A stretch of DNA of 62,304 nucleotides. Source: an uncultured Alphaproteobacteria bacterium (GTDB lineage Bacteria > Pseudomonadota > Alphaproteobacteria > JAPULJ01). The notes below the pieces were generated by a model. The model saw only the letters and a list, made by a program, of their open reading frames with translations. It made no database searches and had not been told where the DNA came from. The DNA lies in NCBI GenBank assembly GCA_964494065.1, contig CAZBRE010000005.1, forward strand, positions 1 to 62,304, given 5' to 3'. How positions within the stretch are numbered: position 1 is the stretch's first letter; every line of letters starts with the position of its first letter. The translations under genes and the position numbers were made by a program. Positions 1 through 38,751 of the stretch are shown here, piece after piece.

Positions 1-77
<77 letters not shown>

Positions 78-4731: not shown

Positions 4732-5187
4732 ATGATGAAACGCATTCTAGTTCTCAGTGCTGCAGTGTCGGCCATGGTCGTTCTTGGCGCCTGCGCGCCG
4801 CGGGTGGCGACGCTCGGCAATGCGCCGCGCAAGGATCAGCTGGAGAAGGTCAAACCCGGACAAACCAAGGAACAGGTCCGCCAAGCTTTGGGGTCGCCCT
4901 CCTCCGTCGCGATGTTCGACAAGAACATTTGGTACTACATCAGCAAGCGCGAAGAGAGCTACGCGTTCTTCAAGCCCACGGTCAAGGAGCAAAAGGTCCT
5001 CATTGTTCGCTTCACGGAAACCGGGCACGTCAGGGAAGTGAAACGCCTCAGCCTCGCCGACGCCCATGACGTCAAATATGTCGACCAAGAGACCCCGACC
5101 CTCGGCCGCGAGGATGGCGTGCTGACATCGTTGATGCGGATTATCACAGATCAGCGCGGCATTCTGGCCCCGCGCGGCGGCCGCTAG
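4732..5187 (+). CDS. bamE: Outer membrane protein assembly lipoprotein BamE
   Basis: Lipobox VLGAC, then GQTKEQVRQALGSPSS...WYYIS; start ATG 4732. Confidence 0.9.
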   Translation: MMKRILVLSAAVSAMVVLGACAPRVATLGNAPRKDQLEKVKPGQTKEQVRQALGSPSSVAMFDKNIWYYISKREESYAFFKPTVKEQKVLIVRFTETGHVREVKRLSLADAHDVKYVDQETPTLGREDGVLTSLMRIITDQRGILAPRGGR

Positions 5188-20591: not shown

Positions 20592-21167
20592 TTAAGCAGG
20601 CGGCTGCGAGCCGTCCGATTGATCGTCGCACGAGCCACATATCTTCTTGATTTCTGTCTCGCTGAGCGGCTCGCCCGTTAGCCCGCAGCGAGGTGCAACG
20701 CCGTCATCGCAAACGTCGGAGCTGAAGTGGCCGCAATGCGTACAGACGCCGAACGATTTCATCCCGCATTGCCCCTGAAGCGACCGGACATACCCTGAAA
20801 GAATACGCGTGGCAGCCGCCACCTCATCCGGCGCGCCCATGGTGGCTGCGGACAGAGCGATCAGCGGATCATTGGCAAGCATTGCGTGCCCGGCCTCGCT
20901 CAATTCCAGCCGGACGATGCGGCGGTCCTTTACTTCGACATCCCGCCTGATAAGCCCCTTTTCCTCCAGCGCCTTTACGGTCTGCGAGACCGTGCCCTTC
21001 GTTGTGCCCAAATAGTCCGCCAGCGCGCTCGGCTTCCGCGAGTACCGGTTGGCCCGGCTCAAGAATCGGAGCGCCTCCCACTGCGCCGGATTGAGCCCTC
21101 CGGCAAACTGCAGATTATGGACAGCCCGGCCAAGGCGATCGAGTAAATGGGCGAGGGTCTCTGTCAT
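20592..21167 (-). CDS. MarR-family regulator with a Cys-rich C-terminal extension
   Basis: LNPAQWEALRFL...TKGTVSQTVKALEEKGLI...DRR wHTH; tail FGVCTHC...C...RCGL...ICGSC; start ATG 21167. Confidence 0.88.
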   Translation of the reverse strand: MTETLAHLLDRLGRAVHNLQFAGGLNPAQWEALRFLSRANRYSRKPSALADYLGTTKGTVSQTVKALEEKGLIRRDVEVKDRRIVRLELSEAGHAMLANDPLIALSAATMGAPDEVAAATRILSGYVRSLQGQCGMKSFGVCTHCGHFSSDVCDDGVAPRCGLTGEPLSETEIKKICGSCDDQSDGSQPPA

Positions 21168-21195
21168 AGGCGGATCCGCTTTCTGCCGGCCCAAC

Positions 21196-21261
21196 TAATA
21201 TCGACTCGATATTAATATTGCACCCTTCGTCTATGGGCGATATAGTTTCGGCTCGACAGTA
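21196..21261. promoter_or_regulatory. Two MarR-type operators overlapping a sigma70-like promoter for the rpoH-like gene
   Basis: Perfect 9-1-9 palindrome TAATATCGA-C-TCGATATTA (21196-21214); 14/19 copy at 21243-21261; TTGCAC(21218-23)-N17-TATAGT(21241-46). Confidence 0.75.
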
Positions 21262-21332
21262 GTCAATGCAAGGAGCCGGGCCTGTATTCACCACCGTAAG
21301 GTTGGATATGGGACGCGGCAGTCGAGGTTACC

Positions 21333-22214
21333 ATGGCGACGTCAAATAGCGCACGTACTGGACAGAGCGATCGTCGATATATTGCCGCGACCATGCGCGC
21401 TCCCTTGCTGGAGCGCGAGGTCGAGGCCGACCTGGCTCGCCGCTGGCTGAAGGACCGCGATGAAGAGGCGCTCCATGAGCTGATCGAGGCCCATGGCCGT
21501 CTCGTGGTTCGCATCGCGGTGGGCTTCAAGGGAAGCGGCCTGCCGGTGGCGGATCTGGTCCAGGAGGGCAATATCGGTCTGATGGAAGCGGCCGAGCGCT
21601 TCGATCCCGAGCGCAATGTGCGGTTTTCCACCTACGCCACCTGGTGGATCGTCGCCGGCATCCAGAACTATATCCTCCGCAATTCCTCGATCGTCAGGGC
21701 CGCGACGACCCCCAAGCAGCGCCGCCTGTTCTTCAATCTCCGGCGCCTGCGGGCTCGTCATGCTGCCCGCTTCGATGGCCGCCTATCCTCCGACGACCGC
21801 GAGATGATCGCCGAGCGGCTCGGCGCCACCGTGGCCGAGATCGAGCGAATGGAGGCGCATGTCGCACGCTCCGATCAGTCGCTCAATACGCCGATCGGCG
21901 ATGATGAGGCGATCGAACAAATCGACCTCTTGGCCGATGGGTCCCCAAATCCCGAAGATATCGAAGTGTCGGCGAGCGGCCGGCGCGCCCGCTCAGATTG
22001 GATCGACAAGGCGCTCGATCGGTTGAGCACGCGGGAGCGCGAGATTATCGCCCAGCGCTTCCTGGCCGAGCGCCGCATTACCTTGGCGGAGATCGGCGAG
22101 AATTTCGGTGTCAGTAAGGAACGGGTTCGGCAAATCGAGGGCCGCGCGCTCCAGAAGATGCACGCGACCTTGAGTGAGTATATCGATCGTCCCGACGAGC
22201 TATTCGACGTTTGA
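21333..22214 (+). CDS. rpoH: RNA polymerase sigma-32 family factor (RpoH2-like)
   Basis: DLVQEGNIGLMEAAERFDP...RFSTYATWWI; RpoH box QRRLFFNLR; region 4 GVSKERVRQIE. Confidence 0.9.
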   Translation: MATSNSARTGQSDRRYIAATMRAPLLEREVEADLARRWLKDRDEEALHELIEAHGRLVVRIAVGFKGSGLPVADLVQEGNIGLMEAAERFDPERNVRFSTYATWWIVAGIQNYILRNSSIVRAATTPKQRRLFFNLRRLRARHAARFDGRLSSDDREMIAERLGATVAEIERMEAHVARSDQSLNTPIGDDEAIEQIDLLADGSPNPEDIEVSASGRRARSDWIDKALDRLSTREREIIAQRFLAERRITLAEIGENFGVSKERVRQIEGRALQKMHATLSEYIDRPDELFDV

Positions 22215-22244: not shown

Positions 22245-22724
22245 TTACGCAGCCTGCGTGCTGGACTGAAGGAAGCCGGGCTGGCTAGCCGCCCGCGTCC
22301 AAAACTGCTCGAGCGTGCGAAGGTTCTTGATCATCGCCTCGAGATCTTCCGTCGACATAACGCCGTCGCCCAAAGCACGCGCGTGGTTGGTGAACAGCTT
22401 TTTCAGCTGCTCGGCCAGCTCGCGCCCCTTGTCGGACAAACGCACCCGAACCGAACGCCGATCGCGCGGCGAACGCTCCTGCTGAACATAGCCGTATTCG
22501 ACCAGCTTCTTCAGATTGTAGGTGACGTTGGTGCCAAGGTAATAGCCGCGCGCCGTCAGTTCGCCCACGGTCAATTCGTCGGTCCCGATATTGAACAGGA
22601 TCAAGCCCTGGACGTTGTTGATGTCGTCAACGCCCAATCGATCGAGCTCACTGCGCAGGACATCGAGGAACTGCCGGTGCAGCCGCTCGATCATGCTGAA
22701 TGCTTCTCGGTATACGTGCTCCAC
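22245..22724 (-). CDS. MarR-family regulator, LdtR-like
   Basis: IERLHRQFLDVLRSELDRLGVDDINNVQGLILFNIG...GYYLGTNVTYNLKKLVE...DRRSVR; GTG start at 22724 inferred (frame is open to 23129). Confidence 0.85.
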   Translation of the reverse strand: MEHVYREAFSMIERLHRQFLDVLRSELDRLGVDDINNVQGLILFNIGTDELTVGELTARGYYLGTNVTYNLKKLVEYGYVQQERSPRDRRSVRVRLSDKGRELAEQLKKLFTNHARALGDGVMSTEDLEAMIKNLRTLEQFWTRAASQPGFLQSSTQAA

Positions 22725-22774
22725 GGCCAAGTCCGATGTGTTGGGTTGCCTGAAGCGATGGTAGGAATTGCGCC

Positions 22775-22789
22775 TTAAAATATCCTTAA
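22775..22789. promoter_or_regulatory. CtrA-type binding site
   Basis: TTAA-AATATCC-TTAA (TTAA-N7-TTAA) about 50 bp upstream of the inferred LdtR-like start. Confidence 0.55.
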
Positions 22790-23145
22790 GCTTTTGAGGT
22801 GGGCTGGCGGATTCAGGGCCGATCACAGGCGTTGGATCGACGTTTTCGCCCAGTGGCCCAGAGCCTTTGAAAGCGCGCAAAATCCGTACGGAATCCTTTG
22901 AATTTGCAGCGTTGGTCAGGCGCCCCGAATAGGGCCGCCGGGCCTCCGGGAGCCGCCGGCGGTAACACTTCCCTAACCAATTCCTCGCTTTCTCCAAAGC
23001 CGGTCGTCGAGCGGTTCGAATTCGCTCATTTCGATCCTTTTGCTCGAAATCGAGGCCTGTTTTGGGCACGCGGCGGCCGTTATAAGACGTATGGCGGTCG
23101 TAATGGCCGCTGACATCGGTCGGCGGCATCGAGAGAGGCGAATCC

Positions 23146-23622
23146 TTGGTGACCTATTCCATCGGCCGTGACGAGGCGAACGACATCGTCATCGAGGACC
23201 TCTCGGTCTCCCGCCGTCATGCCCGCATAGAAGAGCTTGGCGACGGCCAATACGTCGTCATCGATCTGGGCAGCGCCAATGGCTGCTACGTCGAGCAATC
23301 CGCGGACTGGCAGCAGTTCGCCGAAGCCGAGGTGAAGGCCACCGAGGCCCTCATGCTGGGCGAATACCAAACCACCGCCCGAGACCTGATTCGACGAGTC
23401 GCCAAGCCGCGCCCGCCCGGCGCCACGGTCATCGCCTCGGCGGAGGAGACCCAACGAAGCATCGATCGAGAGGCGGTCGGGCCCACCACGCCTCGAGAAA
23501 CGCTCGGATCGGTCTGGTCCCGATTTCCGCAATACCAGAAAATTGCGGTCATCGTCATTGCGGCGGTGCTGGGTCTACTGATCGCCGCCGCCATAACAAT
23601 CGGGTTTCTGGGCGGCTTGTAG
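23146..23622 (+). CDS. FHA-domain protein with a C-terminal membrane anchor
   Basis: IGR...SVSRRHA...DLGSANG FHA signature; terminal hydrophobic IAVIVIAAVLGLLIAAAITIGF. Confidence 0.85.
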   Translation: MVTYSIGRDEANDIVIEDLSVSRRHARIEELGDGQYVVIDLGSANGCYVEQSADWQQFAEAEVKATEALMLGEYQTTARDLIRRVAKPRPPGATVIASAEETQRSIDREAVGPTTPRETLGSVWSRFPQYQKIAVIVIAAVLGLLIAAAITIGFLGGL

Positions 23623-38677: not shown

Positions 38678-38751
38678 TGGGGGATAGTTTAACGGTAGAA
38701 CGAGCGGCTCTGACCCGCTTAGTCCTGGTTCGAATCCAGGTCCCCCAGCCA
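38678..38751 (+). tRNA. tRNA-Gln (anticodon CTG)
   Basis: TGGGGGATAGTTTAACGGTAGAACGAGCGGCTCTGACCCGCTTAGTCCTGGTTCGAATCCAGGTCCCCCAGCCA. Confidence 0.96.

Follow-up and report, generated by a model that had tools for sequence, protein, structure and literature searches.

How is a sigma factor of the RpoH2 type controlled where its gene stands back to back with that of a Cys-rich MarR-type regulator? The question is raised by contig CAZBRE010000005.1 of an uncultured alphaproteobacterium (assembly GCA_964494065.1), analyzed here over positions 1 to 62,304 (the window). To our knowledge, control of alphaproteobacterial RpoH2/RpoHII is known only via cascades of extracytoplasmic function (ECF) sigma factors. 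Here, we consider it probable, as a joint reading, that the MarR protein, denoted MarR-Cys4, represses the promoter of the rpoH2-like gene via two operators, O1 and O2, with its C-terminal tail of four conserved cysteines (Cys4) acting as an iron-sulfur (Fe-S) or redox-labile Zn sensor. The two genes would then constitute a self-contained regulatory module. Direct support comes from the pairing of the genes, the conservation of operators and promoter, the MarR fold, the invariant Cys4 and the affinity of the sigma factor to RpoH2.

A conserved divergent gene pair

The marR-Cys4 gene (20592..21167, minus strand, stop codon included) encodes a protein of 191 amino acids, of which residues 1-133 form the MarR fold and residues 134-191 the Cys-rich tail. 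The rpoH2-like gene of the sigma-32 family (21333..22214, plus strand) encodes 293 amino acids with regions 2, 3 and 4 and the RpoH box QRRLFFNLRRL; a Shine-Dalgarno sequence, GAGG (21324..21327, plus strand), can be read 5 nt before its ATG. The divergent gap between both genes comprises 165 bp (21168-21332). An alternative TTG start of marR at 21194 is possible; the homologs begin at ATG.

For comparison we used the best 80 of 427 relatives, obtained in a genome scan with alignment of homologs and all annotated as metagenome-assembled genomes (MAGs). Most of these loci are labeled Alphaproteobacteria or a subgroup thereof (Rhodospirillaceae, Ferrovibrio, Defluviicoccus, Minwuia, 'Odyssella'), and a few carry broader or other labels. 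An RpoH-like gene is located divergently and immediately upstream of the MarR gene in 76 of the 80 loci. Three of the four exceptions are cut by a contig end and only one, L038, is truly without the sigma gene, so that the MarR-Cys/rpoH pairing, for which the preliminary description had proposed a neighborhood survey, is kept in 76 of the 77 informative loci (80 minus the three cut ones). The homologs share 44-76% (sigma factors, tblastn) and 44-64% (MarR proteins) identity with the proteins of the window; given the former range, the loci carrying the pair are not near-clonal. The closest locus among the best 80 relatives, L001, belongs to an unclassified alphaproteobacterial MAG (64% identity for MarR, 76% for the sigma factor). 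Near-identical DNA originates mainly from salt-marsh metagenomes. Other neighbors are only partly syntenic, among them an acyl-CoA dehydrogenase gene downstream of marR in ~15 loci and a gene for an LdtR-like MarR protein in 13 loci. In L038, a mutator-type transposase gene and a glycerate-kinase-like gene lie upstream, and the motif around the third Cys is altered (YCALTDEPL).

Two predicted operators in the divergent gap

The perfect 19-bp palindrome that had been described for the gap is indeed present. This predicted operator, O1 (21196..21214), is a 9-1-9 palindrome (TAATATCGACTCGATATTA = TAATATCGAcTCGATATTA) with a 13-mer core at 21199-21211; it starts 29 bp from the ATG of marR and ends 3 bp before the −35 hexamer of the sigma gene. 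It is the sole perfect inverted repeat (arms of at least 9 nt, loop of at most 3 nt) in the window, where its core has no other exact match either. Shuffled windows yield 1.5 such palindromes each, with ~0.004 expected in a divergent gap of 165 bp; the palindrome by itself is not rare, its placement in the divergent gap is. The second predicted operator, O2 (21243..21261), is a 14/19 copy of O1 with the core TTTCGGCTCGACA (21246-21258), and it lies over the 3′ end of the −10 hexamer and the inferred start, as previously reported. Within the window, matches to the core at the two mismatches of O2 occur at chance level (6 found, 12.6 expected); O2 is significant because it is conserved in relatives, not from the window alone.

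This conservation, which the preliminary description had named as a check, concerns both palindromes and the promoter toward rpoH that they bracket. An O1-type site matching the core WWTCGAnTCGAWW with at most two mismatches is present in all 77 gaps. With the stricter core WWTCGAsTCGAWW and at most one mismatch, 128 matches were counted in 20,154 bp of gaps versus 3 in 567,540 bp of flanks (the remainder of the loci), an enrichment of ~1,200-fold per base. O1 and O2 occur as a pair in 71 of the 77 gaps at a spacing of 44-58 bp (mode 47), with O1 at a distance of 10-45 bp from the marR start. It could be argued that the adjacency of the genes is incidental and that the palindromes either serve the autoregulation of marR only or are chance repeats, as one perfect palindrome per 62 kb matches the shuffles and O2 alone is at chance level in the window. 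Yet the gene pairing persists while other neighbors vary, the core is strongly concentrated in the gaps, and the conserved promoter directed at rpoH has O2 on its −10. Pairing, operator enrichment, O1/O2 spacing and promoter conservation all contradict an incidental adjacency, which we regard as extremely improbable.

Additionally, 13 of 71 loci (L001, L012, L021, L026, L031, L041-L044 and others) have a GTCAA pentamer (21262-21266 in the window) at a constant distance of 3 or 6 nt past the O2 core. Its background frequency is 2% of 20-nt windows, and it is clade-restricted. A third half-site and a leader element are two possible interpretations.

The promoter of the sigma gene

Reading toward the sigma gene on the plus strand, the −35 hexamer TTGCAC (21218..21223; family consensus CTTGnA) is followed after 17 nt by the −10 hexamer TATAGT (21241..21246), on whose final base the O2 core begins. 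A TTG was found in 69 paired loci, and in 51 of them it lies 6-8 nt past the O1 core; the commonest −35 heptamers are CTTGTAA, CTTGCAA and CTTGAAA. The hexamer ending on position 1 of O2 is TATATT in 13 loci, TATAGT in 10, TAATGT in 7 and similar in others, and the information content of these columns is high. The conserved layout is therefore O1, −35, N16-17 and −10 overlapping O2, reading toward rpoH. The promoter TTGCAC-N17-TATAGT proposed in the preliminary description is thus present and its hexamers are positionally conserved, though a generic scan misses it. Its statement that the gap contains no GGAAC-type −35 as recognized by EcfG also held: GGAAC is absent from the gap of the window, and the full motif GGAAC-N15-18-CGTT was found in none of the 77 gaps.

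Both hexamers agree with the RpoD type of Alphaproteobacteria, with T1, A2 and T6 kept in the −10; the RpoD motif given for rpoE3 is CTTGCA...CATATC (PMC6180224). Transcription of rpoH would start near 21253, inside O2, from which an 80-nt leader containing the GAGG follows. A search of Rfam over 21100-21450 returned no known RNA element, and the generic scan of 21100-21400 called one weak terminator-like hairpin inside the spacer. For marR, no consistent −35/−10 was found on the minus strand across the loci, and the TAATAT formed on this strand by the outer arm of O1 is suggestive at most.

The same promoter may also be read by the RpoH2-like sigma factor itself, in a positive autoregulation to which MarR-Cys4 would serve as the brake. 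Autoregulation of rpoH is known in some Alphaproteobacteria, and a CTTG −35 together with a C-rich stretch before the −10, as seen in some clades (CCGCTATnT), resembles alphaproteobacterial sigma-32-type promoters; a sigma-32-type, autoregulated reading of CTTG...TATAnT is in this sense possible. But the −10 keeps the T1, A2 and T6 of the RpoD type (TATAGT, TATATT, TAATGT), the triplet preceding it is heterogeneous, and a purely autoregulatory promoter could not start from zero. We therefore judge this alternative to be quite unlikely.

In another scenario, MarR-Cys4 would be an activator or dual regulator: bound at O1, it would recruit RNA polymerase, the −35 being weak, and O2 would serve tuning or autoregulation. 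Some MarR/SlyA-type proteins activate transcription, the −35 of the window (TTGCAC) is weak, and the center of O1 lies ~48 bp upstream of the inferred start, in principle a position from which an activator can act. On the other hand, O2 covers −10 and +1 in 71 of the 77 loci, which is the classic position for repression, most relatives possess a good CTTGnA −35 for which no activator is needed, and the sites in the more distant Enterobacter, Lelliottia and Agarilytica also overlap −10-like hexamers. Activation appears very unlikely to us on these grounds, and control by repression at an RpoD-type promoter is the reading followed below.

The linked sigma factor is RpoH2-like

The sigma factor matches the Pfam models Sigma70_r2, r3 and r4, has no region 1.1 and, with 293 amino acids, is within the RpoH length of ~285-300. 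It passes the NCBIfam model NF005693 'RNA polymerase factor sigma-32' marginally (316.4 bits, cutoff 315) and stays below the cutoff of TIGR02392 rpoH_proteo (278.4 bits, cutoff 323.1). An RpoH box of the expected form Q(R/K)(K/R)LFFNLR is found in all MarR-linked sigma factors. Identity amounts to 50.4% with RpoH2 and 40.8% with RpoH1 of Sinorhizobium meliloti, of which the former was recognized by its thiQ/M48 neighbors and the name 'factor sigma-32' given by the Prokaryotic Genome Annotation Pipeline (PGAP) and the latter by the adjoining rluA-family gene. In a neighbor-joining tree (distance-based, rough and without support values), S. meliloti RpoH2 falls within the single group of MarR-linked sigma factors, apart from RpoH1, and two RpoH-like sigma factors from Azospirillum plasmids fall outside this group. 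The label RpoH2-like, already used in the preliminary description, is supported by both identity and grouping. No second rpoH gene was found within the 62-kb window. The linked sigma genes on the plasmids of Bradyrhizobium sp. Ash2021 and Octadecabacter described below are necessarily extra copies.

A MarR core with a dedicated four-cysteine tail

Residues 24-98 of MarR-Cys4 match the Pfam models MarR_2 (55.4 bits, cutoff 27), MarR (43.2 bits) and HTH_27 (41.9 bits). None of the NCBIfam MarR equivalogs came near its cutoff; the OhrR model reached 21 bits (cutoff 200), and NF038251, the AdcR model for zinc-dependent AdcR/ZitR proteins with His/Glu zinc sites in the core, 19.7 bits (cutoff 175). 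An AlphaFold2 (AF2) model of a single chain computed with a diverse alignment has a mean pLDDT (predicted local distance difference test) of 92 and shows over residues 1-133 the complete MarR fold, α1-α6 plus wing, with helices at 3-20, 27-38, 46-53, 57-69, 91-97, 102-111 and 113-133 and strands at 73-77 and 85-89. Foldseek, queried with the whole model, returned MarR structures only, over ~135 columns (E ~1e-6, TM (template modeling) scores 0.55/0.73), and none of them covers the tail. In the tail, residues 140-180 are modeled with pLDDT values of 76-95 as short hairpins; with close homologs only, the tail had stayed below 50, which the diverse alignment cured. The residues T56, T59 and Q62 of the recognition helix are invariant in a plasmid-borne set of sequences (alignment A3) and nearly so in a diverse set (A6).

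The tail domain (residues 134-191; 20595..20768, minus strand) contains seven Cys, at 134, 142, 145, 153, 161, 177 and 180, including the motifs CTHC and CGSC. All seven had been emphasized in the preliminary description, and this emphasis was misleading, since only four of them are conserved. As judged in the alignments A1, A2, A3 and A6, C142 (codon 20742-20744), C145 (20733-20735), C161 (20685-20687) and C177 (20637-20639, all minus strand) are invariant in 109 close and 120 diverse sequences, in the pattern C-x2-C-x15-C-x15-C. They are likewise invariant in members encoded on plasmids of Alpha-, Beta- and Gammaproteobacteria, with identities of 34-40%. C134, C153 and C180 are lineage-specific. 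Residues 1-133 are devoid of Cys; a reactive Cys in the core, as in OhrR or MgrA, is therefore absent.

When the tail was searched against Pfam, nothing scored above threshold, with DUF7140 and zinc-ribbon models remaining below it, and nothing significant was found among PDB sequences. In its Cys spacing and local motifs (C-x2-C-x-H-F; C-G-L), the tail resembles the [4Fe-4S] ligand pattern of high-potential iron-sulfur proteins (HiPIP); the profile match to the HiPIP PDB 3h31 had an E value of 2.5, which is not significant and gives no more than a lead. The motif H-x3-C-x2-C of zinc-binding anti-sigma (ZAS) domains is not found in the tail, which reads FGVC-x2-C-x-H, and there was no match to an anti-sigma model in Pfam. 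A profile of the tail recovered 449 representatives among 1.84 billion sequences, and nearly all of these were the C-terminus of proteins of ~180-215 amino acids, or fragments. Because it is found almost only in this architecture, the tail appears as a dedicated domain of this MarR subfamily. Azospirillum plasmid matches to the MarR protein cover the core alone (residues 6-130).

The wider MarR-Cys4 family and its genomic neighbors

In the promoters of their own genes, distant members of the family in Alpha-, Beta- and Gammaproteobacteria retain sites of the TAGTATCGAnTCGATACTA type, e.g., TATAGTATCGATTCGATACTATA (Enterobacter) and TAGCGAGTCGCTA / TTTCGAGTCGATA (Phaeobacter). In Enterobacter and Lelliottia, MarR-Cys4 is paired with glutaredoxin, DUF2024 and Rof. 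The loci L094 and L082 are from Enterobacter hormaechei IncHI2 plasmids (e.g., NZ_AP025834.1) and a Lelliottia plasmid. In ~56 Enterobacter plasmid records, the gene stands divergent from glutaredoxin-(DUF2024)-rof, and two near-perfect TAGTATCGAnnCGATACTA sites overlap −10-like hexamers. Neighbors in Agarilytica are protoglobin and YghU, in Polaromonas aconitase and an NDH-2-like oxidoreductase; a MOSC protein is encoded in the same operon in Leisingera and Phaeobacter, and a truncated globin gene accompanies one further member.

On two plasmids, Fe-S genes and an rpoH-like gene come together. In Bradyrhizobium sp. Ash2021 (L092, NZ_CP100605.1), rpoH is divergent from marR-fdxA, and two TTTCGAAA sites flank CTTGACA-N17-GATAAT. 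The operator of this locus (4880-4990) is shorter, GTTTCGAAAC, and present twice; its half-sites overlap, versus a separation of 5 bp elsewhere, yet the placement of the sites around the promoter, here a textbook one, is unchanged. In Octadecabacter, aconitase is followed by marR, Mrp/NUBPL and Nfu/NifU-DUF6522 on one strand and then by the gene for an RpoH-like sigma factor, which has O-like sites around TTGACA. This locus (L088) is from Octadecabacter arcticus 238 plasmid pOA238_160 (NC_020910.1, 44000-55000), with the full gene order SdhB Fe-S subunit, aconitase, transposase fragment, marR-Cys4, Mrp/NUBPL (a P-loop NTPase with a GBBH-like_N domain), Nfu_N-NifU-DUF6522 and RpoH-like sigma factor, and with family-type operator sites upstream of acn and of the sigma gene. 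It looks like a plasmid-borne Fe-S stress island.

The theme common to these neighbors suggests a link to redox, nitrosative or Fe-S stress, and in combination with the invariant Cys4 it makes an Fe-S or redox-labile Zn(Cys)4 center the most likely sensor; the case for the metal, Fe-S or thiol sensing that the preliminary description had attributed to the tail is circumstantial. The same wiring could be combined with a different signal if Cys4 were a structural zinc knuckle and the dimer interface of the MarR fold bound a small organic molecule as the effector, in the manner of classical MarR, HucR and CouR. Small phenolic compounds or acyl-CoAs are what most MarR proteins respond to, the PDB neighbors of MarR-Cys4 include CouR and MftR, the weak sub-threshold Pfam matches of the tail are to zinc-ribbon-like models, and there is the acyl-CoA dehydrogenase gene downstream of marR. 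However, this synteny is partial, and members of the wider family have redox, Fe-S and globin genes as neighbors instead of catabolic pathways. Moreover, exactly four Cys are invariant throughout the Alpha-, Beta- and Gammaproteobacteria while the remainder of the tail varies, which fits a functional center, as does the near restriction of the tail to the MarR-Cys4 architecture. A structural zinc site combined with an organic ligand hence seems rather unlikely, and a sensory Cys4 center is preferred.

Other features of the window

Convergent with the sigma gene, and downstream of it, is a second MarR-type gene (22245-23129, minus strand), the LdtR-like one that is syntenic in 13 loci; its match to NF047395 (182.8 bits) is below the cutoff of 250. 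The homology covers only residues 127-278 of the open reading frame of 294 amino acids, so that probably either the true start is internal or the N-terminal 125 amino acids are novel. Divergent from it, a gene at 23146-23622 (plus strand) encodes an FHA-domain protein of 158 amino acids with a hydrophobic C-terminal segment, which is conserved only in the closest locus, L001. Two tRNA genes, tRNA-Pro(GGG) at 1-77 (minus strand) and tRNA-Gln(CTG) at 38678-38751 (plus strand), were also annotated, and no connection to marR or rpoH was made.

A model for the control of the rpoH2-like gene

In the mechanism that we propose, MarR-Cys4 would be a dimeric repressor of the MarR fold recognizing a palindrome of ~17-19 bp, TAnTWTCGAsTCGAWAnTA. 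Dimers of the holo-protein on O1 and O2 would occlude the RpoD-type promoter of the rpoH2-like gene: as O1 abuts the −35 and O2 overlaps the −10 and the start, bound repressor would exclude RNA polymerase carrying RpoD. The C-terminal four-Cys domain of 55 amino acids would likely be the sensor, most probably with an Fe-S cluster or else with a Zn(Cys)4 site that is redox-labile, and oxidation, nitrosylation or loss of this center would lead to the release of the DNA and switch on an RpoH2-type stress regulon. The bound repressor probably also autoregulates marR, because O1 lies only 10-45 bp from the marR start across the loci and the marR promoter must therefore overlap it. The inferred parts of this model are the sign of the regulation (repression and not activation), the position of the start, the cofactor, the signal and the autoregulation of marR.

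Several observations weigh against this model. L038 (3700-4561) contains a MarR-Cys4 ortholog with neither an adjacent sigma gene nor operators. With ~4.5 helical turns between them, O1 and O2 are on opposite faces of the helix, which does not favor simple looping. The generic sigma-70 scan of 21100-21400 called no promoter, as TTGCAC has no more than 3 of 6 positions in common with TTGACA; the activator-like position of O1 near −48 and the sigma-32-like traits of the promoter, both weighed above, count here as well. No known metal domain in Pfam or PDB matches the tail significantly, and Fe-S and Zn are not distinguished. Finally, metatranscriptome contigs from the same salt-marsh studies, which are unstranded and have a depth of 2-6, extend over the two genes and the gap between them. 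Among these, a contig from run X25 matches 21152-21361 exactly, from the first marR codons through the gap into rpoH, and contigs from other runs (21129-21279 and 21052-21280) cross the gap, too. Read-through, a long 5′ untranslated region and DNA carry-over cannot be told apart as their origin.

Going further, MarR-Cys4 might represent an unrecognized class of Fe-S transcription factors, with HiPIP-like Cys spacing and one operator type throughout Alpha-, Beta- and Gammaproteobacteria, which in a large group of Rhodospirillales-like Alphaproteobacteria directly couples Fe-S, redox or nitric oxide damage to an RpoH2-type sigma factor. We put this forward tentatively, as a possibility that is conceivable rather than likely. 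Independently of the cofactor, the family is compact (~450 clusters at 50% identity), combines a four-Cys domain and a readable operator with regulons rich in redox and Fe-S functions, and is thus a candidate metal or redox sensor family. The module itself spans many uncultured and some cultured lineages (Ferrovibrio, Defluviicoccus, Minwuia, a Bradyrhizobium plasmid), and the members on Enterobacter hormaechei IncHI2 plasmids offer an accessible laboratory model for the family.

Comparison with known systems

A non-exhaustive literature search returned no paper linking a MarR protein to rpoH or rpoH2 or describing a Cys4 MarR. Classical MarR proteins (MarR, SlyA, MepR, ST1710, MftR) share with MarR-Cys4 the winged-helix fold, and their palindromic operators lie over −35 and −10 elements in divergent gaps, as predicted here. 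MarR-Cys4 alone has the extra four-Cys domain of ~55 amino acids, which occurs in no solved MarR structure, and its target is an alternative sigma factor, whereas classical MarR proteins act on efflux pumps or catabolic operons. OhrR, MgrA/SarZ, MosR and HypR are likewise MarR-type repressors and are freed by Cys oxidation, but they use one or two Cys inside the core (helix α1 or α5). The conserved Cys of MarR-Cys4 are confined to the added tail, and their four-ligand arrangement is typical for sites that bind a metal or a cluster.

The closest known architectural analogs of MarR-Cys4 appear to be SufR of cyanobacteria and mycobacteria and ArnR of Corynebacterium, which similarly consist of an N-terminal MarR/ArsR-like winged helix-turn-helix, a dimerization helix and a C-terminal Cys domain (PMC12343034). 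In these proteins, the C-terminal domain binds a [4Fe-4S] cluster and controls DNA binding, with Fe-S biogenesis, hmp and nar as targets (PMC12343034). We found no sequence relationship between MarR-Cys4 and SufR or ArnR. The actinobacterial ArnR has three Cys (179, 193, 223) (PMC12343034), and MarR-Cys4 differs in Cys spacing, operator and targets. The Cys spacing of HiPIP [4Fe-4S] ferredoxins (C-x2-C, ~x16, C, ~x13, C) is akin to that of MarR-Cys4, in a local alignment with an E value of only 2.5.

With respect to the output, the nearest counterparts are ECF cascades. The rpoHII gene of Rhodobacter sphaeroides is activated by RpoE (PMC7074977) and rpoH2 of S. meliloti is a direct target of RpoE2 (PMC6180224), in agreement with the ECF-driven background from which the preliminary description had started. 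RpoE-ChrR of R. sphaeroides and RpoE2/EcfG of S. meliloti have the same output as proposed here, a stress-induced cascade with an RpoH2-type sigma factor. Their input is an ECF sigma factor, whereas that of the MarR-Cys4 module would be a DNA-binding repressor on an RpoD-like promoter; ChrR, too, is a Zn/Cys protein. If true, MarR-Cys4 would replace the input by ECF sigma and anti-sigma factors known from Rhizobiales and Rhodobacterales, and the module offers a second, mechanistically different input into RpoH2, a one-component repressor acting on a housekeeping-type promoter. MarR repressors, redox-responsive MarR proteins and winged helix-turn-helix Fe-S regulators are known as such; the putative sensor domain and the proposed RpoH2-type target are new.

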